Shown one piece after another: positions 3,728 through 49,494 of a stretch of 51,308 nt of DNA (its first letter is position 1; each line of letters opens with the position of its first letter). The translations under genes were made by a program, and so were the position numbers. Under the pieces are notes generated by a model that was given only the letters and a program-made list of their open reading frames with translations, had not been told where the DNA came from and ran no database searches. Source of the stretch: Oscillospiraceae bacterium (GTDB lineage Bacteria; Bacteroidota; Bacteroidia; Bacteroidales; Bacteroidaceae); NCBI GenBank assembly GCA_963654095.1, contig CAVKAH010000002.1, positions 1 through 51,308 on the forward strand. Direction: 5' to 3'.

Positions 3728-6700
3728 TTATCTTACGTTCAGCTTGTATGTTGCCTTTTTGCCGTTTTTGTTTACGGTAAGGATATACACACCCTTAGCT
3801 AAGTCTGCGGTGCTGAAACCATTCTTTAGGTCGCTTCTTATGGCAAGTCCGTTTGCGCTTACGAGAGAAGCGTTGTCAAATGAACCATTGATACTGATTT
3901 CGTTGTTGTTCAATACAACATTCAGAGAGCCGTCGGCAAAGGTGTTGTCGATAGCAGATAGTGTGGCAGTGCATGGTTCAGATATTTCCGACACTCTGCC
4001 GTCGGCATAGAATGCTTGTACTGTGTATTTGGCGTTGGCATCGTCAGTAACATCTGTGAACGTAGGCTGTGCTGCGTAAACCGCAGTAGTGTTAACTTTC
4101 TCGCCGTTGCGATAAACGTTGTATGCCACAAGAGCGTTGTCGAGTTGTGGATTGTCTACGGTAGTGGCAGTCTCTGTTATATTGGCGCGGATAGGCCATA
4201 TACACATTCCTCTGCCGTCAGCATCATCTTTATTGAAATCGTTGATATTGTTCCATGTCTTTCCTTCATCCTCAGAGTAGAGGTCGGTAGTACCAGTAGC
4301 CGACTCCATGCTTGTCTGATAGTAGAGCGGTGTCTGCTTGCTGTCGTAGTCGTGGATACGTACTGCAATGCGGTAATTCTTACCTTCCTTTATCTGTACA
4401 GGAGTAGAGAGAGCCACGGTAGATGTGTATGGGTTGTCGGCAACATCTTTGTCGAAAGCCTGGCGACTAACCTCAATGCCGTCCTCATATACTATAGCTT
4501 CAGCCTGAGTCTTTTGTGCCGACTCCATAGATGGGTCATCATAGATGAACGAAGATACAGAAGAAATATACTGTCCAACATAATCGGCGAGCTTCTCTGC
4601 AGGCATATCAACGGCAGATATTAGTGATTGTCCTTCATTACCTACGTTGAATTCAGGAATAACATTAGAGTTTGTCAGATAGGAAACTTCGTATGCACCG
4701 AATGTATTCTTCCAAGAAACGTTCACAGTGTTACCATTCTTAATAGCCTTCACTCCTTCAGGAGCAGCAGAAAGTTCGGAGCCTATAGTAACGTAGTCTA
4801 TAGCCCAACGCAACTGTGCCTTACCTTCGCCGTGCATGTTAAATCTGAGTTGGAACGCCTTACCAGCCAGCTCGTCAAGGTCAATCTTATAGAAACTCCA
4901 TACGTAAGGTGTAACATCTTTTGCTGGAACACTCTTTACTATATTCCATGTTTCCCCGTCGTAAGAATATTCAATGTCAAGGAAATCGGAGTTGAGATCC
5001 TTAGGAACCTCGTTGATATATGTAAGGTTACCATATAGCGACAGGTAAGGTTTCTCCACGTTTGTTGCATCTAGGAAGCGGGAAGTGAGAATCATTTGTA
5101 CAGGCTCCTTAGAGATAGAAAGCGTAGAAGCGAAGTAGGATGAGTTCTCGTAGTCGTATGAGTTTCCGCCAGAAATGTTCCAGTTTATTACCTCGTTAAG
5201 GTTGCCTTTCACCACTTCACGTGTCCAATAGTTTGTGGTAAAACTCTGACTTTCGAAGTCCTCAGTAATAGGGAATGCGTAAGAAGCAGGTACTATGAAA
5301 GATGCTCCAGCGGAGACATCCGACAAAATCTGCTTGTCGCCCTTCATACACAAGGCTTTAACGTCTACCGAATATTTACCTTCAGAGACGTCGAAACTAT
5401 ATTTTGTAATGTTGTCTTTAGCATCAACAGCACCCATGTTAGTACCGTTTACGTAAACGAGATACTTGTTTAGCTCAACACCATCAGGTAGGTTCTTGAC
5501 AGCATCCCAGCTAATGGTGAGCTTGTTCATACCAGTTTGATATACTTTTACATTCTCTACGGCGTTGAGAACCGTCTCTCCGTTGTCGAACTTTAGATAC
5601 CAAGAGCTGTACGAACCATAATTATTGGTGTTGCCAACAAGGCTTTTTCCGTCAGCCGACAATGCAACTGGAATGCACGAATTGTCCACTTTAGTGTTTG
5701 TAAGCTCAGGTGCGTAGGTCTCCATAAAGTGGTCTATGCTGATGAGAGATGCACTTTCGGCAGAATAATAGTATGTCTTGTCTGCATAATTCTCGTTATC
5801 CGTAACGATGCAGAAGAAGTTTCCGAAGTTGTCTATAGTAAGTCCTTTCACTTGATAAGCATCAGTAATGGATACATATTTAGTCTGTTCTGACTGTATG
5901 TCATATATGGCAATACGTGGAGCTTTGCCACTGTTGACATATACCAAGGCATATTTTCCATCGGGACTAACGGCAGCAGCCTCACCGCCATAGCTCTCGC
6001 TTGGGTCGATGTCGAGGTTCATTTCCTTGCATTTATCTGCAGATGTCCATATCGCAGGACGCTTGCAACCATCGTATTGCACGTAGCCGACAGCCACTTT
6101 TCCGTCTGCCGACATGCCGTTAATACATGAAAGAGCATTTGTTACAGGTAAGGAATACTTATAGAAATCGTACTTGTCTGTAGTGGAATTGTATTTCCAT
6201 CCACAGGCAATAGACGGCATATAAACCTTGTAAATATATCCTGCCACGGTGTTGCCGTCGGCAGAAACGGATACGGCATAACTACCATCGTATTCATATT
6301 CAAAGTCGCTTATTGTCTGGTCGCCTATTCCTAGATATGTCGGAACACCATCTTTCCATACGGTTGCCGTAACGAAATATGTGGTGTAGGCATCATTCCA
6401 GTCGGTGGCAGGAGTATATTTGTAGAGGTCTTTACTCTTAGATGCTCCTGCAATGACACCACTATTGTTCACATAATTGAACATTCCGCCCTTGCTGAAG
6501 TCGTCATCATTGTAAGTTGTGGTTAGGACATTCTTCTTTGTAGTAGTATCCCAAAGGAAACTCGAGAATTTCCCATCGTCGCTTGTAGACCCTATTCCCA
6601 CTACGTAATTGCCGTTTGGCGAGATAGCTGTAGCTGCTCCAGACGAGATGTTTGCATATTCTGCCTTTGTGTCTTGAGCGGACACAGAGGTGGCTTGCAA

Positions 6701-6745
6701 TGTTATCATGCTGAACAAAGCTAATTGAAGTAGATTTTTTTTCAT
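3728..6745 (-). CDS. Large secreted T9SS cargo protein: N-terminal beta-propeller repeats, Fn3-like and adhesin-like domains, C-terminal sorting domain
   Basis: 1005 aa with a signal peptide (MKKNLLQLALFS...VSA-QD), repeated xSxDGxxxVG motifs, Fn3-like YLVYVNG and YNVYRNG strands, an FPITEDFES domain start, and a C-terminal KGVYIL...TYKLNVR T9SS signal. Confidence 0.85.
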   Translation of the reverse strand: MKKNLLQLALFSMITLQATSVSAQDTKAEYANISSGAATAISPNGNYVVGIGSTSDDGKFSSFLWDTTTKKNVLTTTYNDDDFSKGGMFNYVNNSGVIAGASKSKDLYKYTPATDWNDAYTTYFVTATVWKDGVPTYLGIGDQTISDFEYEYDGSYAVSVSADGNTVAGYIYKVYMPSIACGWKYNSTTDKYDFYKYSLPVTNALSCINGMSADGKVAVGYVQYDGCKRPAIWTSADKCKEMNLDIDPSESYGGEAAAVSPDGKYALVYVNSGKAPRIAIYDIQSEQTKYVSITDAYQVKGLTIDNFGNFFCIVTDNENYADKTYYYSAESASLISIDHFMETYAPELTNTKVDNSCIPVALSADGKSLVGNTNNYGSYSSWYLKFDNGETVLNAVENVKVYQTGMNKLTISWDAVKNLPDGVELNKYLVYVNGTNMGAVDAKDNITKYSFDVSEGKYSVDVKALCMKGDKQILSDVSAGASFIVPASYAFPITEDFESQSFTTNYWTREVVKGNLNEVINWNISGGNSYDYENSSYFASTLSISKEPVQMILTSRFLDATNVEKPYLSLYGNLTYINEVPKDLNSDFLDIEYSYDGETWNIVKSVPAKDVTPYVWSFYKIDLDELAGKAFQLRFNMHGEGKAQLRWAIDYVTIGSELSAAPEGVKAIKNGNTVNVSWKNTFGAYEVSYLTNSNVIPEFNVGNEGQSLISAVDMPAEKLADYVGQYISSVSSFIYDDPSMESAQKTQAEAIVYEDGIEVSRQAFDKDVADNPYTSTVALSTPVQIKEGKNYRIAVRIHDYDSKQTPLYYQTSMESATGTTDLYSEDEGKTWNNINDFNKDDADGRGMCIWPIRANITETATTVDNPQLDNALVAYNVYRNGEKVNTTAVYAAQPTFTDVTDDANAKYTVQAFYADGRVSEISEPCTATLSAIDNTFADGSLNVVLNNNEISINGSFDNASLVSANGLAIRSDLKNGFSTADLAKGVYILTVNKNGKKATYKLNVR

Positions 6746-6898
6746 GTTTGTATTTATTGTTAATAATATTTCGTGTTTATGTTAATCGTATAAATATGAA
6801 CGTTCGTAATAAGTATGCAATATTATAAAAAATATTTGTGATGGGCAAAAGGTAGGTGGAAATAGTAACCAAAAAATCATATTACAAAATATTTTGCT

Positions 6899-6906
6899 TA
6901 CATTTG
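6899..6906 (+). promoter_or_regulatory. Bacteroidota primary sigma -7 element
   Basis: TACATTTG matches TAnnTTTG, 20 bp upstream of the ATG at 6927. Confidence 0.65.
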
Positions 6907-6926
6907 CAAGCAGAAAGAAGCAAAAA

Positions 6927-7931
6927 ATGGAAAAAGAAAGAATACTTGTAACTGGGGCAACAGGCTTCATAGGTAGCTTTATCGTAGAGGAAGCTCTCGA
7001 TAGAGACATGGAGGTGTGGGCGGCAATAAGGCGCAGTAGCTCGCGAAAGTACCTGCAGCAACCAGGAATAAACTTCATAGAACTCGACCTTGATGATAAA
7101 GAGAAACTCAAAGTGCAGCTTTCGGGACACACATTCGACTATGTGGTACATGCTGCGGGGGTAACAAAATGTCTGAACAGACAGGATTTCTTTAAGACAA
7201 ACACCGAGGGAACGAAGCATCTTGTGGATGCTTTGAGAGAAACACAAATGTCGATAAAGAGATTTGTCTTTGTCAGTAGCTTGAGCATCCTTGGTGCTAT
7301 ACGTGAACAACAGCCGTATAAAGAGATAACAGACAGCGACACGCCACAGCCGAACACGGCATACGGCAAGAGCAAACTCATGGCGGAAGACTACCTACGC
7401 TCATTGTCAGACTTCCCCTTCGTAATTCTCAGACCGACGGGAGTGTATGGTCCGAGGGAGAAAGACTATTTCATGATGGCAGAGAGCATTAAGAAACACG
7501 TAGACTTTGCCGTTGGCTACAAGCGTCAAGATATCACATTTATATATGTAAAGGATGTGGTTCAGGCGGTCTTTCTTGCCCTTTCCCGAAGTGGCGTGTG
7601 TGGCAAGAGCTTTATCCTGAGTGATGGTGAGGTGTACTCATCACGCACCTTTAGCGATTTGATAAAGAAGGAACTCGGCATAAAACACGTGCTTCGCATC
7701 GTGGCTCCATTATGGTTTCTCAAGGTGGTGTCGGTAGTAGCAGAGGCTTTTGCACATCTTACGGGGAAGATTTCTGCATTGAACCGTGACAAATACTATA
7801 TCATGAAGCAGCGCAACTGGCGTTGCGACATAAGTGCTGCAAGGCAGGAATTGGGTTTCAACCCTGAGTATAACCTGGAGCGAGGAGTGAAGATAACAAT
7901 GAAATGGTATAAAGATGAAGGCTGGATTTAA
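6927..7931 (+). CDS. NAD(P)-dependent epimerase/dehydratase (extended SDR)
   Basis: Rossmann motif VTGATGFIG, HAAG, FVSS, catalytic YGKSK and RPTGVYGP. Start moved to the ATG at 6927 (MEKERIL). Confidence 0.9.
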   Translation: MEKERILVTGATGFIGSFIVEEALDRDMEVWAAIRRSSSRKYLQQPGINFIELDLDDKEKLKVQLSGHTFDYVVHAAGVTKCLNRQDFFKTNTEGTKHLVDALRETQMSIKRFVFVSSLSILGAIREQQPYKEITDSDTPQPNTAYGKSKLMAEDYLRSLSDFPFVILRPTGVYGPREKDYFMMAESIKKHVDFAVGYKRQDITFIYVKDVVQAVFLALSRSGVCGKSFILSDGEVYSSRTFSDLIKKELGIKHVLRIVAPLWFLKVVSVVAEAFAHLTGKISALNRDKYYIMKQRNWRCDISAARQELGFNPEYNLERGVKITMKWYKDEGWI

Positions 7932-8901
7932 TATTAAAGACTTGTTCAAGATAGAGGCAAAGCCACAGCGCGGACTATTTGCCATGGAGTGGGTGATGCT
8001 TGTTTACCTGATGCTAACTATGCTCATGGTGTTCTTTATGTATACAAAAGTGGTGAACCCAGAGGCAATGGTGTGGGGAAGAGTGCGTATCGCTGTAGTA
8101 ACGTTTGCTATGTGGGGAGTATACAGAATGGTACCCTGCCGCTTCACGAAGTTTGCTCGTATCACTGTGCAGATGGCACTTTTGAGCTGGTGGTACCCCG
8201 ACACCTATGAGCTAAACCGTATGCTTCCCAACCTCGATCACCTATTTGCGGGGGTAGAACAAAGTGTGTTTGGCTGTCAGCCAGCACTATATTTCGCTCA
8301 GAAATTCTCATATCCTGTGGTCAGCGAACTTATGGATATGGGGTACGCTTCGTACTATCCAATGATAGTGCTTGCCGCAATATATTATTTCGTGTGGAGG
8401 TATTCTGAATATGAGCGGGCTGCATTTGTCATCATGGCATCGTTCTTTGCGTATTACGTGATCTTTGTTCTTGTTCCTGTTACAGGCCCTACTTTCTATT
8501 ATAAAGCAGTAGGCATAGACCAGATAGCGGCAGGAGTTTTCCCCAATCTGCACGACTATTTCAATTCCCATACAGAGTGTTTGCCCAGTCCAGGATATAC
8601 CGATGGCATCTTCTATCAGCTTGTAGAAGATGCAAAGGCAGCAGGCGAACGCCCCACGGCAGCCTTTCCGAGCAGTCATGTAGGTATAAGTACGGTGATA
8701 ATGTTGTTGGTTTGGCACACACGTAATAGGCGTCTTCTCTATTGTATGTTGCCGTTCTATGTGTTCCTATGTATGGCAACGGTGTACATACAGGCACACT
8801 ATGCCATTGATGCAGTGGCAGGACTCGTTTCGGGAACGGTATTCTATTTCCTGTTTATGTTCCTGTCAAGAGGAATGGTGGAACGGTCAAGAAGGAGATA
8901 A
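7915..8901 (+). CDS. PAP2-superfamily membrane protein, AUR1/IPC-synthase-like
   Basis: 328 aa with several TM segments, AAFPSSHV and QAHYAIDAVAG (His/His/Asp triad), and PVTGP where the phosphatase KxxxxxxRP motif would be. It overlaps the SDR gene by 17 bp. Confidence 0.82.
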   Translation: MKAGFNIKDLFKIEAKPQRGLFAMEWVMLVYLMLTMLMVFFMYTKVVNPEAMVWGRVRIAVVTFAMWGVYRMVPCRFTKFARITVQMALLSWWYPDTYELNRMLPNLDHLFAGVEQSVFGCQPALYFAQKFSYPVVSELMDMGYASYYPMIVLAAIYYFVWRYSEYERAAFVIMASFFAYYVIFVLVPVTGPTFYYKAVGIDQIAAGVFPNLHDYFNSHTECLPSPGYTDGIFYQLVEDAKAAGERPTAAFPSSHVGISTVIMLLVWHTRNRRLLYCMLPFYVFLCMATVYIQAHYAIDAVAGLVSGTVFYFLFMFLSRGMVERSRRR

Positions 8902-8921
8902 CCTCATACTTTAAGATTAAT

Positions 8922-8980
8922 AAGGATATAGCTAACGATGCGTCAGAGTATAGATAACGCTTCGTTAGCTATATCTTTTT
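8922..8980 (+). terminator. Rho-independent terminator of the SDR-PAP2 operon
   Basis: GATATAGCTAACGA (8925-8938) pairs with TCGTTAGCTATATC (8962-8975), followed by TTTTT. Confidence 0.8.
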
Positions 8981-9100
8981 ATATCGTAAATATATGGGGT
9001 TTAAATGCTTATGTTTCTCTTTGTATTTCTCTATCCTCGGTTTTATTACAATAAAAAGCATAATTAACAGGAAAACAAGTTATATTTAAGTAAAATTTTA

Positions 9101-9108
9101 TATATTTG
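9101..9108 (+). promoter_or_regulatory. Bacteroidota -7 promoter element
   Basis: TATATTTG (TAnnTTTG) about 70 bp upstream of the ATG at 9181. Confidence 0.6.
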
Positions 9109-9180
9109 CAAGGGTGTCCCGTAATAGGAATAAGCGGAACACAAATTAACCCTAAAGATATAAACGAAAATCATAACAGT

Positions 9181-10671
9181 ATGGCTTACACACGCATTAC
9201 AGCAGCTGAGGCTGCCGCACTGATAAAAAATGGAGATAGTTTAGGACTTAGCGGATTTACTCCTGCAGGAACGGCAAAAGCCGTTACACGCGAGCTTGCC
9301 AAGATTGCAGAGGCAGAACATGCGGCAGGAAGAGAATTTCAGGTTAGTATTTTCACAGGAGCATCTACAGGACAAAGCACCGACGGAGTGCTCGCTGAGG
9401 CTCACGCCATTAAATATCGCGCACCTTATACTACAAATCCTTCTTTCCGCAAAAGCGTAAATCAGGGAGAGATAGCATATAATGACATCCATCTAAGCCA
9501 CATGGCACAGGAGCTGCGCTATGGTTTTTATGGCGACATCGACTGGGCTATCCTTGAGGTAAGCGACATTGAGGAGGGCGCAGACACCTGCAAAGCGTAT
9601 CTCACAGCGGCAGGAGGTATCAGTCCTACCGTGGCTCGACTCGCCAAACACGTAATTCTGGAGCTTAACACATTCCACAGTAAGGATGCAAAATTCATGC
9701 ACGACGTTTACGAACCTCTCGACCCGCCAGTGCGCCAGCCTATCCCTATCGTTAATGTTGGCGACCGTATCGGTAAGCCATACGTAGAGATTGACCCTAA
9801 GAAGATTATCGGCGTGGTGGAGTGCGACTTACCTGATGAGGCTCGAGCATTTAAAGACAGCGACCCAATAACAGACCAGATTGGGCATAACGTGGCGGAA
9901 TTCCTCGTGAATGATATGAAACGCGGTGTGATACCCTCAACTTTCCTACCTCTGCAGAGTGGTGTGGGCAGTACGGCAAACGCTATTCTCGGAGCGTTGG
10001 GCAAGGACAAAAATGTGCCAGACTTCAACGTTTATACAGAGGTGATGCAAGATAGCGTAGTGGCAATGATGCTTGAGGGTAGAGTGAAAGATGCTTCGGC
10101 TTGTTCGCTCACGGTTTCAAACGAGTGCTTAAAGCAGGTTTATGACAACATGAACTACTTTAAAGACCATATAACATTACGTCAGAGCGAGATTTCAAAC
10201 TCTCCAGAGGTTATCCGCCGACTCGGAATTATTGCTATAAACACCGCCATCGAGGTGGATATCTACGGAAATGCCAACTCCACACATATAAGCGGAACAA
10301 AGATGATGAACGGTATTGGCGGTAGTGGCGACTTTGAACGCAATGCCTATATCAGTATCTTTACATGTCCCTCAACAGCAAAGGGAGGTCTGATAAGTAG
10401 TATCGTGCCGATGGTAAGTCATCAAGATCACTCTGAACATGACGTGAATGTAATCGTTACAGAGCAGGGTGTAGCAGACCTCAGAGGTAAGAGTCCGATA
10501 GAGCGTGCCCATCTTATTATAGAGAATTGTGCACATCCAGACTATCGTCCAATACTACGTGCGTACCTCGAACATGCAAAGATGGGACAGACTCGCCATA
10601 ACCTTGGCAAGGCGTTTGCCATGCACATAGCATTGGCAGAAAAGGGAGATATGCACCTGACGGATATGTGA
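9181..10671 (+). CDS. Succinate/acetate CoA-transferase (acetyl-CoA hydrolase/transferase family)
   Basis: SGFTPAG, FTGAST, DIHLSH, PLQSGVG, YTEV, NGIGGSGDF and TEQGVADLRG motifs. Start moved to the ATG at 9181 (MAYTRI). Confidence 0.92.
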   Translation: MAYTRITAAEAAALIKNGDSLGLSGFTPAGTAKAVTRELAKIAEAEHAAGREFQVSIFTGASTGQSTDGVLAEAHAIKYRAPYTTNPSFRKSVNQGEIAYNDIHLSHMAQELRYGFYGDIDWAILEVSDIEEGADTCKAYLTAAGGISPTVARLAKHVILELNTFHSKDAKFMHDVYEPLDPPVRQPIPIVNVGDRIGKPYVEIDPKKIIGVVECDLPDEARAFKDSDPITDQIGHNVAEFLVNDMKRGVIPSTFLPLQSGVGSTANAILGALGKDKNVPDFNVYTEVMQDSVVAMMLEGRVKDASACSLTVSNECLKQVYDNMNYFKDHITLRQSEISNSPEVIRRLGIIAINTAIEVDIYGNANSTHISGTKMMNGIGGSGDFERNAYISIFTCPSTAKGGLISSIVPMVSHQDHSEHDVNVIVTEQGVADLRGKSPIERAHLIIENCAHPDYRPILRAYLEHAKMGQTRHNLGKAFAMHIALAEKGDMHLTDM

Positions 10672-10702
10672 TATCAATAACGAAGATAATAAAAAGATAA
10701 AT

Positions 10703-10740
10703 AAAATCGGGGCTCGCAGATGATGATGAGCTCCGATTTT
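10703..10740 (+). terminator. Rho-independent terminator or stem-loop after the CoA-transferase
   Basis: AAAATCGGGGCTC ... GAGCTCCGATTTT. Confidence 0.7.
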
Positions 10741-10764
10741 CATAACCGCAAATAACTCTAACAA

Positions 10765-11613
10765 ATGAAAAAAATACTTTTAATAGCTTCCGTCCTTATG
10801 CTTGCCGTTACGGCAAAGGTAAACGCAGAAAACGTTTTTCCTGATGTTAAGAGTAAAGAGTTTAAGACTTTGACACTCATACATCCATGGCATGGGAAGA
10901 GAGTGGCGTATTTTGGCGACTCAATAACTGACCCTAAGAACAAGGCTTCGGATAACAAATACTGGTCGCTAATGCAGCAGTGGCTCGGCATAACACCATA
11001 TGTTTATGCCGTCAGCGGTAGACAATGGAACGACATACCTCGGCAGGCAGACCAGCTAAAGAAGGAACATGGCGATGACTTTGATGCCATAATGATATTC
11101 ATAGGTACTAACGATTTTAACGCTGGAGTGCCTATTGGGGAGTGGTTTACAGAGACAGAACAAGAGGTAATGGCTGGTATTCACGAGCCCAAGCATATTG
11201 TTAAGCGTATGCATAAAGATGTGTGTATGACAGATTCCACATATCGTGGACGAATAAACATTGCTCTTGACAAGGTGAAAAGAATGTTCCCAACCAAACA
11301 AATTGTACTTGTTACGCCTATCCATCGTGCACAATTCTACCGAAGCGAAACCAACTGGCAGCCTACGGAAGATTACCGCAATAAGTGCGGCGAATATGTT
11401 AGTCGATACGTGGAGTCGGTAAAAGAGGCTGGAAACATCTGGAGTGTTCCTGTCATAGACATGAATGCCCTCTGCGGGTTATACCCATTGATGGATGAAC
11501 ATGCACAGTTTTTTAATAAAGCAGATGTAGACCGCCTGCATCCCAACAACGAAGGACATCGCCGCATGGCACTCACTTTAGTGTATCAACTTCTACACTT
11601 ACCTTTGTTTTAG
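10765..11613 (+). CDS. Secreted SGNH/GDSL-family esterase (carbohydrate O-acetylesterase-like)
   Basis: Signal peptide, block I FGDSIT, block II AVSG, block III GTNDF and block V DRLHP. Confidence 0.88.
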   Translation: MKKILLIASVLMLAVTAKVNAENVFPDVKSKEFKTLTLIHPWHGKRVAYFGDSITDPKNKASDNKYWSLMQQWLGITPYVYAVSGRQWNDIPRQADQLKKEHGDDFDAIMIFIGTNDFNAGVPIGEWFTETEQEVMAGIHEPKHIVKRMHKDVCMTDSTYRGRINIALDKVKRMFPTKQIVLVTPIHRAQFYRSETNWQPTEDYRNKCGEYVSRYVESVKEAGNIWSVPVIDMNALCGLYPLMDEHAQFFNKADVDRLHPNNEGHRRMALTLVYQLLHLPLF

Positions 11614-40275: not shown

Positions 40276-40398
40276 AATCGTAATGTGTTATGTTCGTATT
40301 AGTATTCTTTGATGCGAAGTTACGAATTTTTTCTTTCTTTTGTTCCTATGCCAACATATTTGTATCTATTCTGTTATGATTATTTAGCATTATCTTTA

Positions 40399-40590
40399 GG
40401 CGTGTTCTAAAAATTCCACGCATTATTAAAATCTATTTTGACGGATATACTCTTTGTGTCTTTTTGCTTTTATCCGGCATCTTTTTCGTCCTTCTTCAGT
40501 CGCATAGCCCGCTATGCTCCTTCAGAAAGACAGAAAAATCTGCTCGAATAAAAAGCAAAAATACATCAAAGGTAATTTTTAGAACCCGCC
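40399..40590. mobile_element. 192-bp non-coding MITE-like element with terminal inverted repeats and a long internal hairpin
   Basis: Left TIR GGCGTGTTCTAAAAATT and right TIR AATTTTTAGAACCCGCC are 16/17 complementary. An imperfect inverted repeat spans 40452-40571, centred on GCATAGC-CC-GCTATGC. A related copy lies at 32630-32716. Confidence 0.8.
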
Positions 40591-40600
40591 TTTAAATAAA

Positions 40601-40685: not shown

Positions 40686-40744
40686 CACACTTTTACGTCC
40701 TTAAAAATGTAAATATGCACACTTTTACGTCCTTAAAAGTGTTG
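40686..40744. repeat. Two 21-bp exact direct repeats, each part of a 9-6-9 palindrome
   Basis: CACACTTTTACGTCCTTAAAA at 40686-40706 and 40718-40738 (period 32). Extended, they read ACACTTTTA-CGTCCT-TAAAA(A/G)TGT. Confidence 0.88.
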
Positions 40745-40808: not shown

Positions 40809-40848
40809 AAAAAAAGCACCGACATTGCCTATAAGACATTGCCGGTGC
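40809..40848 (-). terminator. Rho-independent terminator of the TlpA/Omp28 operon
   Basis: The minus-strand RNA GCACCGGCAAUGUCU-UAU-AGGCAAUGUCGGUGC is followed by U7. Confidence 0.82.
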
Positions 40849-40881: not shown

Positions 40882-42849
40882 TTACTTAACCATCACTTTC
40901 ATAGTAGAGCCGTCAGACATCTTCACGATGTTCAAACCCTTCTGAGGAGCTGAAAGCTGTACACCGTCGAGTGAGTAGCGTGCAACTTCTGTAGCTGCTT
41001 TATCAGATGAAATAGCATTGTTGATACCTGTTGCATCACTAAGTTTCACGCTGTTTGCATTGTTAACCCATACTTCATCGTATGCTGAGGCGTATGTATC
41101 ACTAACTTTAAGAGGGCTGCTTATGAAAGCAACTACATGCATATTGTCTGCAGTCCATGCTTTATCGAGTGTTACCTCGTAATCTTTCTCAAATTTATTG
41201 CCATTCCATACAACTGCATCTCCCAATGGAGCACTTACAATCTTACGAAGTACGTTGTTGTGTGTGAACTTGTAGTTATATGTACCATTATTATTCTGCT
41301 TTGCTACAAGACCGTCTTCTGTCAGATAAACAGTAACCACAGCATCTTCGCCAAGTAGCTTCTGAACATTGTCTACACCCTCACCAGAAACCTTTATTCC
41401 AAGAGTTTTTGTTGTTTCATCATAAGTTGTTGCAATATCAACAGTGGTGAATGCAGGAATTTCCTTATTACTATAGTCGATAACGGTGCTGAACATTTTT
41501 GCAACTTGTGTGGCATAAGTAGTGTTATATCCAAGTCCAAAAGAAAGATTGCCGTCATTTGTACCACCGTAAACTGGTGCTAAGTAGTATCTGTTGAATG
41601 TTGCAGTAGGGTATCCTGTTGTTGCATAGTTCATGTAAGTGCTTGCATCACTTATTGTGTAGATATCATTTCCTGTTGACATGTTTCCGTGTAATGAAAC
41701 CCATGCAATATCACTTCTTTGTTTTGTTAATGTCTCAAGAATTGTTATACCATAAGGACAAGCCGAACAATACTGTGATGTAAAATGCTCTATAAGTTGT
41801 TTTTGGTGACTTAAGCTGTCGGCAAAAATCTTAAACTTTGTAGTAAGAACATCGTCATCTGTATTTTCTGGTGTTTGACCATTAACAGATTTGATGTAAA
41901 CAGTAAGCTCATTTTCTTCGCCAACAGCTTTTAAGTTAGCTGCAGGAAGAGTGATAACTCCACCGAAGTACTGGCTTACACTTGTTACATCAACTTTTTT
42001 CTCTGTTTCAGCAGATGTGTTATCGAAGGTTTTAATTTCTGTTCCGTTCAGCTTAACACCATATTCTGCGCTACTAAATGTAGCACCCAAGTTTGTGCTT
42101 CCACTGAAATAAACCATTGTTTCATTACCTTTAACAAATTTCGGAACGTATAGATCTTCTATCTTTCCATCCAACTTAGAGAAGCCACCATCCTTTTCAA
42201 CAATAAGCTGAACACTTACACTACCATAATCTGTTCCCATATTATACCAGCCAAGACCAGAGCCTAAATTAGCATAGCAATAGAAACATCCATCATACGC
42301 TACCTTAGAATTGGTTGAAATTGGATAGTTTGAGCTTGTCTGTTTGTAGCTAAATCCAATTAAGAGGGCATCGTCTGTACCAATAGTATAATCAGAAGTT
42401 ACATTAACTTCGTTCCATCCAACTTTTGTAGAAGATATTTCTTGTTCAAAGATGTTTTTACCTAAACCATTTCCTACAGGTGCTGCAAAGGCAACAACCC
42501 CATCTGCTGCGTCACAAAGTCCAACACGTATTCCTACAATTTTAGCACCTTTGTATGGAGCAAGCATAGTCTTGTCTAACATTGCTCCTACTTTAATTGT
42601 TCCAGGAAGACTTGTAATTCCTAATCCTTCCTTTGTAGAAGCTAAATCATCTGTCGTATATGGACCTAAGTAAGTTTGATTCTCTGCCAAAGCTTTCTTA
42701 GGAGCGGTTTTCTTTACGCTTTTAAATTCTGTTTTTACATCTGATTTATGCTCAAATGTAATACCTTTTGGTACAAGTGTCTTTATTTGTGCACTTGCCC
42801 ATGTGCTTGTAAGCAGTAACACTGCTAATGAAAGTAATGATTTCTTCAT
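40882..42849 (-). CDS. T9SS cargo protein with an Omp28-like thioredoxin domain
   Basis: Signal peptide (ASA-Q), LIEHFTSQYCSACP, GYPT..FNR, YLTEDGL...HNNVLR and NMHVVAFI Omp28 motifs, and the CTD YSLDG...KGLNIV...KVMVK. Start moved to the ATG at 42849. Confidence 0.85.
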   Translation of the reverse strand: MKKSLLSLAVLLLTSTWASAQIKTLVPKGITFEHKSDVKTEFKSVKKTAPKKALAENQTYLGPYTTDDLASTKEGLGITSLPGTIKVGAMLDKTMLAPYKGAKIVGIRVGLCDAADGVVAFAAPVGNGLGKNIFEQEISSTKVGWNEVNVTSDYTIGTDDALLIGFSYKQTSSNYPISTNSKVAYDGCFYCYANLGSGLGWYNMGTDYGSVSVQLIVEKDGGFSKLDGKIEDLYVPKFVKGNETMVYFSGSTNLGATFSSAEYGVKLNGTEIKTFDNTSAETEKKVDVTSVSQYFGGVITLPAANLKAVGEENELTVYIKSVNGQTPENTDDDVLTTKFKIFADSLSHQKQLIEHFTSQYCSACPYGITILETLTKQRSDIAWVSLHGNMSTGNDIYTISDASTYMNYATTGYPTATFNRYYLAPVYGGTNDGNLSFGLGYNTTYATQVAKMFSTVIDYSNKEIPAFTTVDIATTYDETTKTLGIKVSGEGVDNVQKLLGEDAVVTVYLTEDGLVAKQNNNGTYNYKFTHNNVLRKIVSAPLGDAVVWNGNKFEKDYEVTLDKAWTADNMHVVAFISSPLKVSDTYASAYDEVWVNNANSVKLSDATGINNAISSDKAATEVARYSLDGVQLSAPQKGLNIVKMSDGSTMKVMVK

Positions 42850-42865
42850 GTTAGTGAATTTATAA

Positions 42866-43534
42866 TTATTTATTAAGAATCTTGACAGTCTTGCCATTAG
42901 ACAGAACAACAATATTTAAACCCTGTTGTAGAGAGTCTATTCTTTGACCATTTGGTTTATAATAAGCAACAGGATTAGCCTTTCCTGTTTCTACACCATT
43001 TATAGATGTTGGGTCTGAATATACGAATTTTACTGTTATCTTAGGGCCATAAGCCTTAAAAGTGTCATAGTCTGGTAATGTAGTTCCAAAGATTGTCTTT
43101 TCTTTAACCTCCATTATCTTGAGCTGGAACGTAACTGTACATGTTCCGTATGATGTAGGTATCCACTCTGTTTGAAAGCTTAATGACTGGTTAGCTCCTA
43201 TTCCGCCATTCTCTGTACTATAATTCTTGCCAACTTCATTAGTCCCAGGAATACAGTTTGTAGGGAAGCAACACTGTGGAGCTCCATTGTCGAGTTGAGT
43301 AATGGTGAAGTCTACACCTGTTCCTTGTTCCTCATTTGTAGTGTTCTTTACATATAAACCACTGCTAATCTGTAATGTGCCACCAGTAATCTCTGTCTCA
43401 TTTACAGTTATAGTGCTACCATCTTCAACAACATTGCCATTCTTGTCAATAAACTGAAGCGTTGTTAAATCTGTTTGTGCGTATGCCCCAATGCTAAGCA
43501 GGGCTACAATTGCTGATATAAATACTCTTTTCAT
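42866..43534 (-). CDS. Small T9SS cargo protein with a Cys cluster
   Basis: Signal peptide (AYA-Q), a single beta-rich domain with QCCFPTNC, and the CTD YKPNGQ...QGLNIV...GKTVKILNK. Confidence 0.8.
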   Translation of the reverse strand: MKRVFISAIVALLSIGAYAQTDLTTLQFIDKNGNVVEDGSTITVNETEITGGTLQISSGLYVKNTTNEEQGTGVDFTITQLDNGAPQCCFPTNCIPGTNEVGKNYSTENGGIGANQSLSFQTEWIPTSYGTCTVTFQLKIMEVKEKTIFGTTLPDYDTFKAYGPKITVKFVYSDPTSINGVETGKANPVAYYKPNGQRIDSLQQGLNIVVLSNGKTVKILNK

Positions 43535-43547
43535 CTTATTTTGTTTA

Positions 43548-44384
43548 TTATTTTATAGCCACTTTCTCTGTCTGTTGTACACCATCGTTAGTGAATACGA
43601 AAGCAACGACAGACATGTTTTCTGCCTTCCATTCATCTTTAATCTGGATAGAATATGATTTCTTTATGTCGCTATCCTCTACCACATTGATGTCGTCACC
43701 ATTAACATTGCTCAGTGTTGCACGGAACACGTGGTTATGAACATACTCGTTATTCACACTGCCGTCTGGCATATATTGCATGTCTACGATACCATCTTCA
43801 ACGAGCCACACCTGGAGTTTTGCACCGCTAAGTGTATTCAGTCCTGCCACTTCAACGTCAACCTGAAGTGTTTTAGTATCGGCATTATAATTAGTAGTAG
43901 GAATGATAGCTACGGTAGGCTCCGTATTAATCATACCATTAGTATAGGCTGTCCAGTAGCTCAAGTTAGTCAACACCTGACCTCCATATCGGTCTACCAT
44001 ACCGCTCGGTTGTGCCTTTACATTCCATTTAGTATAATAAGAGCTTCCGTCCTCTGTAGTTAGAGACAGAGGTTTGTGCCCTTCTGCTACTGTTGTATAA
44101 CCGAAATCACCACCATAAATACCAACAGCAATGATGTTTTCCTCGCCATAAGTCTCCTGTAACTCTTTTATTTTCTCTGCTGCTTTAGGGCAGTTTACAC
44201 AACGCTGACCAGTGAAATCTTCTATCAGCACATGCTTTTTAACATCAGAAGGTTTGACATAAATAAGGCGTTCATTATCGTCTATGATTGTACAAGATGC
44301 TACAGAAAATACCGTAGCAATAGTCATAATGACACAAAGCCCTTTGCCTACGAATGTGTTATATATATTCTTTATAGATTTCAT
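43548..44384 (-). CDS. Omp28-family outer-membrane lipoprotein with a thioredoxin-like CxxC
   Basis: Lipobox VAS-C, VLIEDFTGQRCVNCP, QPSGMVDR, VWLVEDGI...HNHVFR and NMSVVAFV. Confidence 0.88.
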   Translation of the reverse strand: MKSIKNIYNTFVGKGLCVIMTIATVFSVASCTIIDDNERLIYVKPSDVKKHVLIEDFTGQRCVNCPKAAEKIKELQETYGEENIIAVGIYGGDFGYTTVAEGHKPLSLTTEDGSSYYTKWNVKAQPSGMVDRYGGQVLTNLSYWTAYTNGMINTEPTVAIIPTTNYNADTKTLQVDVEVAGLNTLSGAKLQVWLVEDGIVDMQYMPDGSVNNEYVHNHVFRATLSNVNGDDINVVEDSDIKKSYSIQIKDEWKAENMSVVAFVFTNDGVQQTEKVAIK

Positions 44385-44393
44385 CTCGGATAT

Positions 44394-46067
44394 TTAGAAA
44401 TTATAATTGTATGACAATGTTAAGCCTTTGCTTGCTGGAACCATACGGCAGACACCTCCAGAACAATTATATCCTGCACGTGTTCTACCATAACCCAACT
44501 GCAAGCGATGAGCACCAGTATTGAATGTGATGAGTCCTTGATAATAGTGCAACTTACTTACTCCGCAGTTGTACATATCAGAAACGGTGAACATCCAATG
44601 AGGCACTATGGAAAGTTCGAGCAATCCGTACACCCAGTCGCCCTCATCATCATCTGTTGCAAGATACTGAGCCTCTCCGCGTAGCGTTAATTTGTTATTG
44701 AAACGATATTTAGCATCAGCCACAACGATGTCGGAGTGTACCATTCCGCCCTCGCCTTCTACAATAGTCTTGTTGTAGAACTGGTTCATGTACATAAGGT
44801 TAAGTGTAAAGGAACGTGAGAATTTCTTATCGATATGAACATTCAAGTCCTGATAATACGTTTGGTTTCCCCATTTCCAGAAAGCCGATCCATATCCACT
44901 TGTGCCTTCGCTCTTACCATTATTGGTGTGGTCATTGCGGTCAATAGCATGAACATGAGAGAAGTTTACCTTCACGTCAGTTCCGTATTTACCTCCAAGG
45001 AAAGTATTCCTTTTGAATTTATATCCGAACTCTGCCTGATAAGCCCATTCACCATTAGCCTGTGTGGCATAAGGATAAAGGGCAGCCAAAGCATAGGTTT
45101 GCTCCTGAGTAAATGCAGGCAAGTTGTTGATGTATGACGATAATCCTTGTACGTTGCGGTCGCTGCGGAATGTCATGTTGTCCGAGCGTTTAGCCTGAAG
45201 CAATACGCTTAGGCCGCTCTTTGAATATGAGGCAGACAACATAGCCACCGTACCATTGCGGTAGATGTATGGATATACACGATCGTAAGATGGGTCTTCT
45301 GTCTTCCACGCATACTCTGCCAATACGCTGAAATCACCAGCTTGCAAGTTCGCTCTTACGTCGAAAGCGTTTACGTTGCTAGGCAAATTGAGCTTGTGAG
45401 TGGCGTCTGCCATGATGTTATCGTCTTTAGTAGACTGGTATTTGTTTACCCATGAAGCACCGAGAGTAAGGTATGTGTTATGCTCTTGCATAGACTTGAA
45501 CCACTGGTCGAAGCTCAGTTCCAAGTCGCCACCACTAACCCAAGCGTCGTTCCACTTCCAATAATGGCGCTGCTTTCCTGATAGAGCCTTGATCTGAACA
45601 CCCTTTACAGGACGAATAACAAGGCGTCCGCCGAGCAGAGAGTTGTCGATTCCCAAGCTACGCTCCTCGTATGTACGGAGGATGAAACCCGAACCAAACT
45701 GCTCGTAGAATGTACCAAGCGTGAGGTCCCAATTGTCGAAATGAGTCTTCAGATAGAAGTTTGGCACACCGTATCCTTTGAATCCTTGTTCAGGAGCAGA
45801 GGCATATCCAGGCAGCGGATGCTTTGTAAACTCAAAGCGCAAGCCAGCATCGAGGTGGTTGCTGCGTGCCGCAATGTCGGCGTATGTATTAGTAAGTGCC
45901 CACTCGTTATATTTTTCGGTTCCGATCTTTTTGTCTTCTTGCGGAATGATAATATCGCTCTGTATGCTTCCGCTTACAACAAACTTGTCATCGTCCTTAT
46001 TCTCTTGCGCTGTAATGTTAGAGGCGACAAGAGCAGCAACGAGTGAGAAGAATAGTCTTTTATTCAT
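44394..46067 (-). CDS. DUF6029-like outer-membrane beta-barrel protein
   Basis: Signal peptide, FYEQFGSG.ILR.YEER.LGIDN, alternating beta-strand pattern, and C-terminal GYNCSGGVCR followed by the barrel signal LSYNYNF. Confidence 0.8.
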   Translation of the reverse strand: MNKRLFFSLVAALVASNITAQENKDDDKFVVSGSIQSDIIIPQEDKKIGTEKYNEWALTNTYADIAARSNHLDAGLRFEFTKHPLPGYASAPEQGFKGYGVPNFYLKTHFDNWDLTLGTFYEQFGSGFILRTYEERSLGIDNSLLGGRLVIRPVKGVQIKALSGKQRHYWKWNDAWVSGGDLELSFDQWFKSMQEHNTYLTLGASWVNKYQSTKDDNIMADATHKLNLPSNVNAFDVRANLQAGDFSVLAEYAWKTEDPSYDRVYPYIYRNGTVAMLSASYSKSGLSVLLQAKRSDNMTFRSDRNVQGLSSYINNLPAFTQEQTYALAALYPYATQANGEWAYQAEFGYKFKRNTFLGGKYGTDVKVNFSHVHAIDRNDHTNNGKSEGTSGYGSAFWKWGNQTYYQDLNVHIDKKFSRSFTLNLMYMNQFYNKTIVEGEGGMVHSDIVVADAKYRFNNKLTLRGEAQYLATDDDEGDWVYGLLELSIVPHWMFTVSDMYNCGVSKLHYYQGLITFNTGAHRLQLGYGRTRAGYNCSGGVCRMVPASKGLTLSYNYNF

Positions 46068-46084
46068 ATATAATATAATGTATA

Positions 46085-46137
46085 AAAGCCATACACCACT
46101 TAGGGATATTGCCGCCGCTTAGGCTGTGTATGGCTTT
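46085..46137. other. Intra-operonic stem-loop between tlpA and the beta-barrel gene
   Basis: AAAGCCATACAC (46085-46096) pairs with GTGTATGGCTTT (46126-46137). Confidence 0.7.
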
Positions 46138-46150
46138 ATGGATAAATCTC

Positions 46151-46675
46151 TTATTTTTTGATAAGCTCTCTAACCTTTTCGATAAGCTCTTGCTCGGCAC
46201 CTTCGGTATATCCGTTGTGCTTGTAGACAATCTTTCCATCGCCATCGCAGATAACAACGAATGGTATCATCTCTCCTCCGAATGACTTGCGGAAGTCGGA
46301 ATTAGGGTCGAGCAATACCTCATACTCCCATCCGTGCTGGTTTACGAGAGGCTTTACCTTGTTGGCATTCTGTGCTTTGTCGATAGAAACGGCAAAGACT
46401 TTTACACCTGTCTCGCTTTGCCAGTCTTCATAAACCTCACTTATGGCACTAAGCTCACGATTGCAAGGCTTGCACCATGTGGCGAAGAAATCGATTATAA
46501 ATGGTTTTCCGTCATTGCTGAGAGCCTGTGTGTCAATAGTTTTGCCTTCAATTGTCTTCAGCTTAAATGAAGGAAGCTGAGCATTTACACTTTCCACTGC
46601 TGTGAACAGCATCATTGCAAGCACAAGCAATCCCTTGCTCATCTTGCACAAACTTAATGATTTAATAGTTCTCAT
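46151..46675 (-). CDS. Periplasmic TlpA/ResA-family thiol-disulfide oxidoreductase
   Basis: Signal peptide (VNA-Q), DFFATWCKPC..E, VSID and the cis-Pro loop MIPF. Confidence 0.92.
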   Translation of the reverse strand: MRTIKSLSLCKMSKGLLVLAMMLFTAVESVNAQLPSFKLKTIEGKTIDTQALSNDGKPFIIDFFATWCKPCNRELSAISEVYEDWQSETGVKVFAVSIDKAQNANKVKPLVNQHGWEYEVLLDPNSDFRKSFGGEMIPFVVICDGDGKIVYKHNGYTEGAEQELIEKVRELIKK

Positions 46676-46716: not shown

Positions 46717-46724
46717 CAAAAGTA
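46717..46724 (-). promoter_or_regulatory. -7 element for the TlpA/Omp28 operon
   Basis: Minus-strand TACTTTTG. A second match, TAATTTTG, lies at 46686-46693. Confidence 0.55.
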
Positions 46725-46866
46725 GTTCTTCTTTTACTTTTTAGCAAATAAAAGCGAAAAAAGTTTCACTTTTCATAAGCGAAAACGCATATATTGTTAG
46801 CTAATACCGCCAAATTTGCATCAAGATGTAAGGTTTATGTAATAAGGGATAGCTATAAGTTTTTAG

Positions 46867-48436: not shown

Positions 48437-49429
48437 TTATTTTATATATCTCTCAAGGTCGTCTAATGCCACGTTTCGTGCAACAACCTTTCCCGTTGGG
48501 TCTATTATTATGTTTTCTGGAACGGCATGAAGTCCGAGCTTTGCCATAAGTTTACTGTCAAACAGCTGTTCGTCGCATACAATAGGGATGTCAATACTAT
48601 TTCTTTCAACATTTTCCTTACACGACTTTTTGCTTGCGTCTACGTTTATGCCAAGCGCAACATAGTTGGCGTTACTCTGCTGTATAAGCATATTTATGCG
48701 GTGCATTATGTTTTCGCTATCGTAGCTCCATGATGCCCAAGTGAAGATTATACCATTTTTTCCCTTAAACATTGCCTTGCTTATATTGTTCCCTTTAATG
48801 TCGGTAGCTTTAAAGTCGGGAATTTTGCTACCAGTATATGCACTGCACAGTATGTTCAGGTCGCTTTTCAACCTTGTTATATTACCATTGTCAGGTTGTT
48901 CTTTCGCAATAATCTCCAACAGTTCCTTAGCTTTAGATGGATTCTTCGTAGCTTCGTTGTTCATAAAGAATTTGCGGAAGAGGTATATAGCCACAGGAGA
49001 GTTGGCATTATCTCGGATGAAATTCTCTGCTGTCGCCATTGTTTCGGGAGGAGAAGATGTAGCAGTAGCCTGCCTGAAGTCTGTCATCAGTTCATTATCG
49101 TCAGTGCCCGACACCTCCATCTGCTTCAGGTGAGAGGCATCAGCCTTGATGTCTACGCCCTCTCCTGGCTCTGCAAATATTGGCTGTTCAGAGAAATTAG
49201 GGAAGACGAGAACCATTGTGCCTCGTCTTGTACATGGTATCTCGAGGGCAAATCTTCCGCCGTTCACCTTGATAGTGTCGATGCCGTTAATCAAGCCGTC
49301 GGTGCTGTACACGTAAAATTCGCCTTGGTTCATATTGAGAAATCTACCTTCGATACTGAAATATCCTTTGCGTGTTCCGCACGAAAGTAGTGTCAAGGCG
49401 AGTGTAAGGATAAGTATGACGTTCTTCAT
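48437..49429 (-). CDS. DUF4369 plus TlpA-like lipoprotein lacking the CxxC motif
   Basis: Lipobox LLS-C, N-terminal DTIKV.GGRF and V.GT.DNE, and a C-terminal PDF...D..G...FTWASWSYDS...VP.NIIID..G thioredoxin fold. Start moved to 49429. Confidence 0.8.
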   Translation of the reverse strand: MKNVILILTLALTLLSCGTRKGYFSIEGRFLNMNQGEFYVYSTDGLINGIDTIKVNGGRFALEIPCTRRGTMVLVFPNFSEQPIFAEPGEGVDIKADASHLKQMEVSGTDDNELMTDFRQATATSSPPETMATAENFIRDNANSPVAIYLFRKFFMNNEATKNPSKAKELLEIIAKEQPDNGNITRLKSDLNILCSAYTGSKIPDFKATDIKGNNISKAMFKGKNGIIFTWASWSYDSENIMHRINMLIQQSNANYVALGINVDASKKSCKENVERNSIDIPIVCDEQLFDSKLMAKLGLHAVPENIIIDPTGKVVARNVALDDLERYIK

Positions 49430-49451
49430 GAACTGATATTTATATAAAAAC

Positions 49452-49494
49452 AAGAGAGGGCTTTGTCAAAGATATACGACTCGCCCTCTCTTTT
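49452..49494. terminator. Terminator after the TPR lipoprotein gene
   Basis: AAGAGAGGGC / GCCCTCTCTT stem with A-rich left and T-rich right flanks. Confidence 0.75.

Follow-up and report, generated by a model that had tools for sequence, protein, structure and literature searches.

At positions 40,882-46,675 of the window, that is, the whole stretch of 51,308 nucleotides that was analysed, five co-oriented open reading frames lie on the minus strand with intergenic gaps of 83, 9, 13 and 16 bp (Table 1). The start of the fifth gene was placed at the ATG at 42849, a TTG upstream of it at 42912 also being present in the ORF list. The pattern TTTG-N20-TAnnTTTG, which we take to be the Bacteroidetes-type promoter consensus, has 3 matches in the whole window against 0.65 expected, one of them upstream of the first gene, and the last gene is followed by a terminator-like hairpin of 14 bp with a U7 tail (-21.3 kcal/mol, z -5.9). 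A generic sigma-70 scanner found neither the promoter-like nor the terminator site and was uninformative in this respect. The ORF list, pattern search and folding all agree with the original prediction of a five-gene operon with these gaps, a promoter element and a terminator. The five cysteine motifs it had named were also all found in their places, with the correction that in CCFPTNC of the fourth product solely the second and third cysteines (C89 and C94) are conserved.

Table 1. Features of the five-gene locus, with positions in the window.
Feature	Position	Strand	Basis
Promoter-like site of Bacteroidetes type, TTTG-N20-TACTTTTG	46717..46748	-	Pattern match, 42 bp 5' of first ATG
Gene 1, TlpA/ResA-type thioredoxin with signal peptide	46151..46675	-	ORF list, Pfam/NCBIfam, 2m72 match
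WCKPC of TlpA (aa 67-71)	46477-46463	-	Motif position
Gene 2, DUF6029 outer-membrane beta-barrel	44394..46067	-	Pfam and predicted structure
C535-SGGV-C540 beta-hairpin, last outer loop of the barrel	44448..44465	-	Motif and predicted structure
Gene 3, Omp28 family lipoprotein	43548..44384	-	Pfam/NCBIfam
Gene 4, PorA homolog	42866..43534	-	Profile and fold comparison
Gene 5, large exported protein with Omp28-type domain	40882..42849	-	ORF list, Pfam
Intrinsic-terminator-like hairpin (40848-40816) and U7 tail	40809..40848	-	Downstream of gene 5

TlpA/ResA proteins are periplasmic reductases fed by DsbD/CcdA, and the first product displays the features of the TlpA/ResA/DsbE type: a redoxin fold, WCxxC, the conserved proline and an export signal. 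It belongs to the redoxin/AhpC-TSA family by Pfam, matches PDB entry 2m72 (205 bits, E 5e-60) and reaches the cut-off of none of the named NCBIfam equivalogs. A complete DsbD is encoded elsewhere in this genome; its N-domain bears a cysteine pair, C135-x4-C140, and at two other loci (L112 and L281) DsbD lies inside the cluster itself. Of 401 genomes sampled from the phylum, 104 encode a barrel of the family of the second gene, as do 83 of 151 from the order; the sampled genomes are related, 33 of the 104 barrel genomes representing one family. Genomes with a top-scoring TlpA were exactly these 104, 49 of which lay outside the training set, where top-scoring means E ≤ 2.8e-43 (next best 2.4e-36), a boundary chosen after the gap was seen. 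Judged from these scores, the TlpA of the locus is a dedicated subfamily paired one-to-one with the DUF6029 barrel.

These genes stay clustered throughout the phylum (60 + 61 loci), as seen in the survey of DUF6029 neighbourhoods proposed with the original prediction: TlpA lies at most two genes upstream of the barrel in 56 of 60 loci, and an exported CxxC protein at most three genes away in 51 of 60. TlpA is also present within 56 of 61 further barrel loci.

The second product matches DUF6029 (PF19494) over profile positions 4-538 with 648 bits (cut-off 27, E 2e-194), and its model has 24 predicted strands, is nearly all beta and ends in a C-terminal phenylalanine (pLDDT 93.8). The cysteine hairpin is placed on the outer side of the barrel by the predicted topology. 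Of 150 representatives sharing less than 50% identity, 149 have its C-x4-C, which in 146 stands 17 residues before the C-terminus, and 108 of the 150 have no further cysteine past residue 25. Among genomic barrels it is present in 58 of 60, both exceptions being broken ORFs. The pair is among nine invariant columns of an 80-row barrel alignment, and no barrel loops are better conserved than the one with the hairpin and outer loop 3 (0.66 each). Lack of cysteine conservation across Bacteroidota had been named as grounds for giving up the original reading, which survives this test with the pair practically invariant.

A PDB sequence search with the barrel gave nothing meaningful, a fold search gave generic large barrels alone, and in the ESM Atlas DUF6029 clusters alone. 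The usher pores FimD and PapC were the best structural matches (Z 17.1 and 16.8; rmsd 4.7-4.9), a generic likeness at 10-12% identity and TM 0.46-0.48, and MtrB was among the fold matches (Z 12.6). In Pfam, DUF6029 alone scores on the barrel, with no usher domain and no TonB plug domain, and PF02683, the helical transmembrane domain of DsbD/CcdA/ScsB, matches none of the five proteins. The 150 barrel representatives contain no selenocysteine (U), bearing in mind that a TGA-terminated protein would show none, and the loci scanned have no credible TGA at any motif, all matches being in stop-rich frames. A TGA in one genome (G107) was rejected as a selenocysteine codon for its mid-gene position, away from the motif.

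The third product scores 261 bits against the Omp28 family lipoprotein model NF033782 (cut-off 150) and matches Omp28 in 2r2c (E 5.5e-10). It has a lipobox cysteine (C31), C62-VN-C65 and the conserved proline of the thioredoxin fold; with the selenoprotein model for Omp28-related proteins (NF045500) it reaches 45.8 bits of the 200 needed, both active-site residues being cysteine. The lipobox cysteine begins an acidic stretch, CTIIDDNER (net -2), which is not an exact match to K-(D/E)2 or SDDDD, the LES signals of surface-exported Bacteroidota lipoproteins (PMC5080379). A net charge of -2 or below after the lipidated cysteine occurs in 29 of 38 homologs versus 34 of 95 crudely predicted lipoproteins of the genome. 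The barrel is carried by 64 of the 65 genomes with Omp28 over cut-off, and 40 of the 104 barrel genomes are without Omp28 over cut-off. As a control, loss of CxxC from Omp28-like proteins in genomes without the barrel was looked for but not borne out, four of the five checked having kept it; even a purpose-built profile did not find the barrel in those genomes.

The fifth product combines variable N-terminal domains, an Omp28-type domain (PF11551) with C361-SA-C364 and a T9SS-like tail, and two further, putatively T9SS-anchored paralogs of the Omp28/HBP35 type are encoded elsewhere in the genome, as are SprA and PorV. Of the localisation signals originally ascribed to the products, those of TlpA and the lipoprotein were seen, and genes 4 and 5 have tails that resemble T9SS signals but stay below the scoring of the models: neither product has a Pfam or NCBIfam sorting-domain match at E 0.01, and the assignment follows motif likeness and homologs that do score. 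The PorA-like family profile is weakly similar to solved sorting domains (E 0.03-0.3). The PF18962 T9SS tail is present on 33 of 63 exported CxxC proteins near barrels. Omp28 is replaced as partner at seven of seven loci (L164-L170) by a CxxC protein of the redoxin family, mostly with CPHC, which we take to be a DsbA-type motif; the family of the partner thus varies, and CxxC and an outward signal are constant.

The fourth product matches no Pfam or NCBIfam family, and it is a homolog of P. gingivalis PorA with the PorA-type beta-sandwich, a C89-FPTN-C94 hairpin and a T9SS-like tail. It aligns with PorA 6kjk at E 3.7e-4 with both cysteines in register (structural Z 14.5, next 8.8), the spacing being C-x4-C versus C-x3-C in PorA (Cys92/Cys96). 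It also fits the PorA pattern of a FimH-like N-domain, a cysteine pair and a position after Omp28; PorA-like folds resemble FimH. A thioredoxin assignment for this gene was rejected on the same profile and fold comparison. The cysteine hairpin is kept in 109 of 111 PorA-like domains, and at two loci (L278 and L139) the PorA-like domain is fused to an Omp28 CxxC domain. Among 151 Bacteroidales, 72 of the 74 carriers of the PorA-like family have the barrel, and only 2 of the 68 barrel-less genomes have a PorA-like protein, though 64 of these have SprA. One of these two cases has lost the hairpin and the other has kept it in one of two domains. The barrel is accompanied by SprA in 81 of 83 Bacteroidales, and 11 of the 83 have no PorA-like match. 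In Bacteroidales the PorA-like gene tracks the barrel, not T9SS.

The order of the window's genes recurs in P. gingivalis, where consecutive tags denote a thioredoxin-domain protein (PG2175), PG2174, Omp28 (PG2173) and PorA (PG2172, PGN_0123) (PMC13744359, PMC9722745). These genes have been studied singly; PG2174 is listed only as an uncharacterized vesicle protein that by its position would be the DUF6029 barrel, and the window adds the Omp28-domain cargo as a fifth gene. In a P. gingivalis Tn-seq study (PMC5581868), both host models show a 15- to 240-fold fall of PGN_0120, 0121 and 0122, which carries little weight as 482 of 2,090 genes drop similarly, including a transposase fragment and conjugation genes. 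HBP35 (PG0616), encoded apart from the barrel in P. gingivalis, is an Omp28-like T9SS cargo at the surface that reduces insulin via its CxxC in vitro (PMC2907840). It pairs an Omp28-like CxxC domain with a T9SS tail, much as predicted for gene 5, and genes 3 and 5 are its distant relatives (gene 3: E 0.003).

Synteny, co-occurrence, the replacement of partners by non-orthologous ones and the fusions point to a shared thiol chemistry. We consider the chances slightly better than even that the operon, each of whose five products bears a conserved cysteine pair, is a thiol-disulfide relay that brings reducing power out of the periplasm and over the outer membrane. In such a relay, the DsbD encoded elsewhere would reduce TlpA, by analogy with DsbD-TlpA/ResA pathways. 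At the periplasmic opening of the barrel, TlpA would bind and pass its electrons to C535-C540, whose hairpin would fold into the lumen. From the barrel hairpin they would go to the CxxC of the Omp28 lipoprotein, which probably sits on the surface, and from there to C89-C94 of the PorA-like protein, which would act as a mobile hub much like nDsbD. The hub would recharge the T9SS-anchored thioredoxins (gene 5 and its two paralogs), and these would act on surface or extracellular disulfides, with mucin, heme and metal uptake as guesses for their purpose. A passage of electrons through the barrel hairpin had been proposed originally and gains from cysteine invariance, synteny, co-occurrence and fusions; the PorA homology of gene 4 had been missed, and it both adds an nDsbD-like hairpin step and opens the alternative of an export channel.

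In gene order the families read thioredoxin, hairpin, thioredoxin, hairpin, thioredoxin, as in the DsbD cascade. The DsbD/CcdA/ScsB relays, which supply TlpA, ResA, CcmG and DsbC, likewise work by dithiol exchange; in them thioredoxin folds take turns with cysteine pairs outside such folds, one pair being carried by a beta-hairpin. However, DsbD is helical and resides in the inner membrane, whereas the window's protein is a beta-barrel and would act downstream of DsbD. In MtrAB-type porin-cytochrome conduits a large barrel houses or contacts a redox partner and electrons cross the outer membrane; these use multiheme cytochromes and differ in this from the window, whose five products have no CxxCH motif. 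In nDsbD two beta-hairpin cysteines bridge thioredoxin folds (PMC7347389, PMC3137068). The fold matches listed for gene 4 do not include nDsbD, and profile comparison of the PorA-like domain with this genome's DsbD-N gave a probability of 0.2% (single-sequence template). That DUF6029 is the outer-membrane counterpart of DsbD, and PorA, so far described only as a T9SS signalling ligand, a surface redox hub for HBP35/Omp28-type thioredoxins, we hold tentatively, at somewhat less than even chances.

The main rival of the relay holds that the barrel serves the PorA-like protein, perhaps also the lipoprotein, as a dedicated pore for export or assembly under redox gating; TlpA would either open it or maintain the cargo cysteines in reduced form until they leave. 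Mutants in porK, porM, porT, porV and sov still bring PorA to the surface, which it thus reaches without the T9SS translocon (PMC7712824), PorA-like genes follow the barrel, and redox control of a pore has a proposed precedent in CsgC/CsgG (PMC3173608). The ushers FimD and PapC offer both the closest solved barrel shape and a cargo whose fold resembles PorA, but they possess plug and periplasmic domains, absent here by Pfam, and the similarity is of the generic kind described above. Such a pore is also at odds with cargo bearing T9SS-like tails in genomes that nearly all encode SprA and with the barrel genomes devoid of a PorA-like match, and it leaves CxxC neighbours from two different families unexplained. 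We regard it as unlikely.

Short hairpin disulfides can be structural, which speaks against the relay. Another reading takes the barrel as a channel for a solute such as a small thiol, heme, a metal or a polysaccharide; TlpA would then look after a hairpin that is a structural disulfide or a gate, with surface thioredoxins acting on the solute and no electron path via the barrel. Polysaccharide export was suggested from HHpred likeness of Wzi-like porins to DUF6029 (PMC9603273), hemin binding by HBP35 is independent of its cysteines (PMC2907840), and the conserved loops 3 and 7 could form a selectivity filter. A reductase dedicated one-to-one to the barrel, however, would be superfluous for a structural disulfide, and no TonB plug domain scores. 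What recurs next to the barrel is redox proteins, and in the neighbourhoods listed no gene for polysaccharides or uptake was noticed repeatedly; we think this channel rather improbable. The same contacts might also serve an inward flow or a sensor, with surface proteins oxidising or isomerising secreted cargo, or reporting the outside redox state, and electrons or a signal draining to the periplasm. The direction may be oxidising by analogy with the CPHC partners and with HBP35, for which complementation of a dsbA mutant of E. coli is reported (cited by PMC2907840), and PorA is a signalling ligand that activates PorXY-SigP through its tail, as known for P. gingivalis only. Yet the periplasmic member matches the reducing ResA/TlpA class, DsbD is clustered at two loci, and PorXY signalling does without the four cysteines of PorA (PMC12152298), and we give inward flow or sensing only a slim chance.

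In the open-access literature the genes have not been treated as a unit and a relay across the outer membrane was not found described; for surface thioredoxins such as HBP35, the accessible parts of it name no recharging route outside the outer membrane. If the barrel were instead an export pore, it would name the T9SS-independent route of PorA to the surface. If the relay is true, a thiol wire from cytoplasm to surface would operate in many Bacteroidota, P. gingivalis and gut Prevotella-like bacteria among them. The DsbD cascade would be extended by one membrane and the barrel family would gain a function. Omp28, HBP35 and PorA would then belong to one pathway, which would explain the PorA cysteines that signalling does not need.

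The operon lies on the minus strand (46675-40882), and its layout agrees with the original prediction: ORF calls returned the same five genes with gaps of 83, 9, 13 and 16 bp, encoding TlpA (WCKPC), a DUF6029 barrel, an Omp28 lipoprotein, a small cargo protein (gene 4) and a large Omp28-domain cargo (gene 5), and all five cysteine motifs were located where they had been placed. The promoter element that had been proposed matches a Bacteroidetes-type pattern 42 bp upstream, and the terminator corresponds to a strong hairpin that leads into a U7 tail directly 3' of the last gene. The genes bordering the operon are of the housekeeping kind; their Pfam domains name them as an RNB protein of the RNase R type and an ATPase resembling ComM. 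Of 50 close metagenome loci with sufficient flank, 36 carry the full five-gene set (by crude ORF calls); the labels of the top homologs are Prevotella or Prevotellaceae, and the loci are mostly from gut metagenomes. SprA, PorV and a complete DsbD are also encoded in the genome of the window.

Features with coordinates in the window and in the sampled loci (L-numbers)
Locus	Position	Observation	Reading
Window	40398-40591	about 194 bp whose ends (40398-40415 / 40574-40591) are 18-bp inverted repeats differing at one position, between operon terminator and RNase R-type gene; read by eye	looks like a miniature inverted-repeat element
Window	40686-40706 / 40718-40738	two identical 21-bp copies in direct orientation, 32 bp apart, same intergenic region; by eye	
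Window	46068-46150 (-)	weak long hairpin in tlpA/barrel gap, -19.7 kcal/mol, z -2.0	a chance feature, or one that could affect stoichiometry or the stability of the mRNA
Window	48437-49453 (-)	lipoprotein with DUF4369 and redoxin domain, CxxC replaced (TWASWSYDS); similar protein on contig C216	thioredoxin fold without active-site cysteines
L139	6863-8350	PorA-like hairpin domains in tandem, two or three per protein, and T9SS-like tail	
L279	1517-2647	as L139	
L280	1886-3019	as L139	
L171	7001-8521	mid-gene in-frame TGA splits DUF6029 gene; TlpA and both partners intact	pseudogene, sequence error or read-through
L277 (genome G524)	6193-11136	barrel and Omp28 lipoprotein in a genome without SprA or PorA-like match	core may work without T9SS
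L002 vs L003	10547-11233 and downstream (L003)	barrel 93% identical in both; gene 5 69% in L002, 32% in L003	as with variable surface alleles, strains seem to have exchanged the last operon genes

The AlphaFold2 model of the barrel is confident (pLDDT 93.8), with 24 wall strands counted from its strand list; structure comparison found no solved relative, the closest shapes being usher pores. The short turns and the C-terminal Phe would place C535 and C540 in a small beta-hairpin within the last outer loop. Lack of conservation of these cysteines had been named beforehand as a refuting outcome. Of 60 genomic barrels, hand-chosen from the 104 positive genomes to span the score range, 58 have the pair; both misses are broken ORFs. 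It recurs in 149/150 cluster representatives and 120/120 close homologs. A further 80 named loci, chiefly from Ignavibacteria, gave 76 occurrences of the motif, at least two of the loci ending before it. No selenocysteine form of the cysteine sites was seen among the 150 barrel representatives and the loci scanned.

A WCxxC redoxin lies no more than two genes upstream of the barrel in 56 of 60 loci (divergent in 9 of the 56). When a TlpA profile built from these barrel-linked redoxins was run over 401 genomes of the phylum, scores separated cleanly into 104 genomes at E ≤ 2.8e-43 and the next at 2.4e-36, the boundary being read off this gap afterwards. The 104 are exactly the barrel-positive set; 49 of them were outside the training set, and in several the two genes are unlinked. 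This one-to-one match across 59 genera, counted over related and not independent genomes, is hard to explain other than by a direct functional link.

Gene 4 is PorA-like. Its profile matches PorA (6kjk) with the cysteines aligned, and its model has the same best match (E 1.3e-6; Z 14.5, next 8.8; rmsd 3.3 over 128 residues). C89 and C94 are the only invariant columns in a 50-row alignment whose rows were hand-picked, mostly among 90 profile matches, and the C-x4-C hairpin is retained in 109 of 111 PorA-like domains. Among 151 Bacteroidales genomes, 72 hold barrel and PorA-like protein, 2 the PorA-like protein only, 11 the barrel only and 66 neither; since SprA is found in 64 of the 68 barrel-less genomes, the presence of the PorA-like family goes with the barrel rather than with the T9SS. 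Two loci join the hairpin to an Omp28 CxxC domain: L139, and L278, where the fusion protein (934 aa) is encoded immediately upstream of TlpA-barrel-Omp28. Unlinked copies often stand beside an Omp28-like CxxC gene (6 of 15 single-hit regions, L264-L276, L279 and L280). According to PMC12152298, the PorA cysteines are dispensable for PorXY signalling.

An exported CxxC protein is encoded within three genes of the barrel in 51/60 loci, and in 44/61 of a second locus set. By hand count 33 of 63 such partners carry a T9SS tail; the remainder are mostly lipoprotein-like, and in many of these acidic residues follow the lipid cysteine. Loci L164-L170 have, in place of Omp28, a T9SS-tailed partner of the redoxin family. 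Conservation extends to the CxxC and the outward address, not to the protein family. Of the 65 genomes whose Omp28 match exceeds the cut-off, 64 have the barrel (69 of 78 at E ≤ 0.001); an expected loss of CxxC from Omp28-like proteins of barrel-less genomes was not seen, four of the five checked retaining it. Identity to the window declines along the operon, from 62-93% for TlpA and barrel to 37-74% for the lipoprotein, 26-59% for the PorA-like protein and 22-69% for gene 5, as expected for rising surface exposure. Two extra Omp28-domain proteins with T9SS-like tails (CGNC, CVNC) are encoded outside the operon, on contigs C187 and C219 of the same genome (L174, L176), and are candidate clients of a relay.

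The module is real and widely conserved, and its most likely reading, at somewhat better than even odds, is a thiol relay across the outer membrane. Counting against it are the dispensability of the PorA cysteines in signalling, the CxxC retained in barrel-less genomes and the lack of a selenocysteine form in the sequences scanned. Periplasmic TlpA cannot reach T9SS cargo once it is outside. An exporter role for the barrel is unlikely, if the foremost of the alternatives; it draws on the usher-like shape and on the arrival of PorA at the surface independently of the T9SS translocon, as described in PMC7712824. Because T9SS cargo have a translocon of their own, the barrel is not obviously required for their export. 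A solute channel, for which one remark in PMC9603273 speaks, seems slightly less probable again. Flow that is inward or oxidising is the most doubtful; CPHC motifs among the partners point to it, as does the complementation of dsbA by HBP35, cited in PMC2907840.

Going by consecutive locus tags (PMC13744359, PMC9722745), the operon parts can be matched to PG2175-PG2172 of Porphyromonas gingivalis. PMC4335976 mentions PG2174 once, as uncharacterized, and PMC3946380 mentions PG2175 once, as a cross-hybridising probe; the Tn-seq effect on the module genes is common to 23% of P. gingivalis genes (PMC5581868, Table 3 rows and part of Table 4). No description of the module, or of any thiol relay across an outer membrane, was found in the open-access papers searched. 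The proposed relay resembles DsbD, whose Ig-like N-domain bears two cysteines on opposite hairpin strands (PMC7347389, PMC3137068); in the genome of the window this domain carries C-x4-C, as do the barrel and PorA-like hairpins. The operon order, with thioredoxin folds in the first, third and fifth place and C-x4-C hairpins in the second and fourth, repeats the DsbD alternation of thioredoxin folds and hairpin cysteine pairs, a likeness that, judged from sequence, would be one of design and not of descent.
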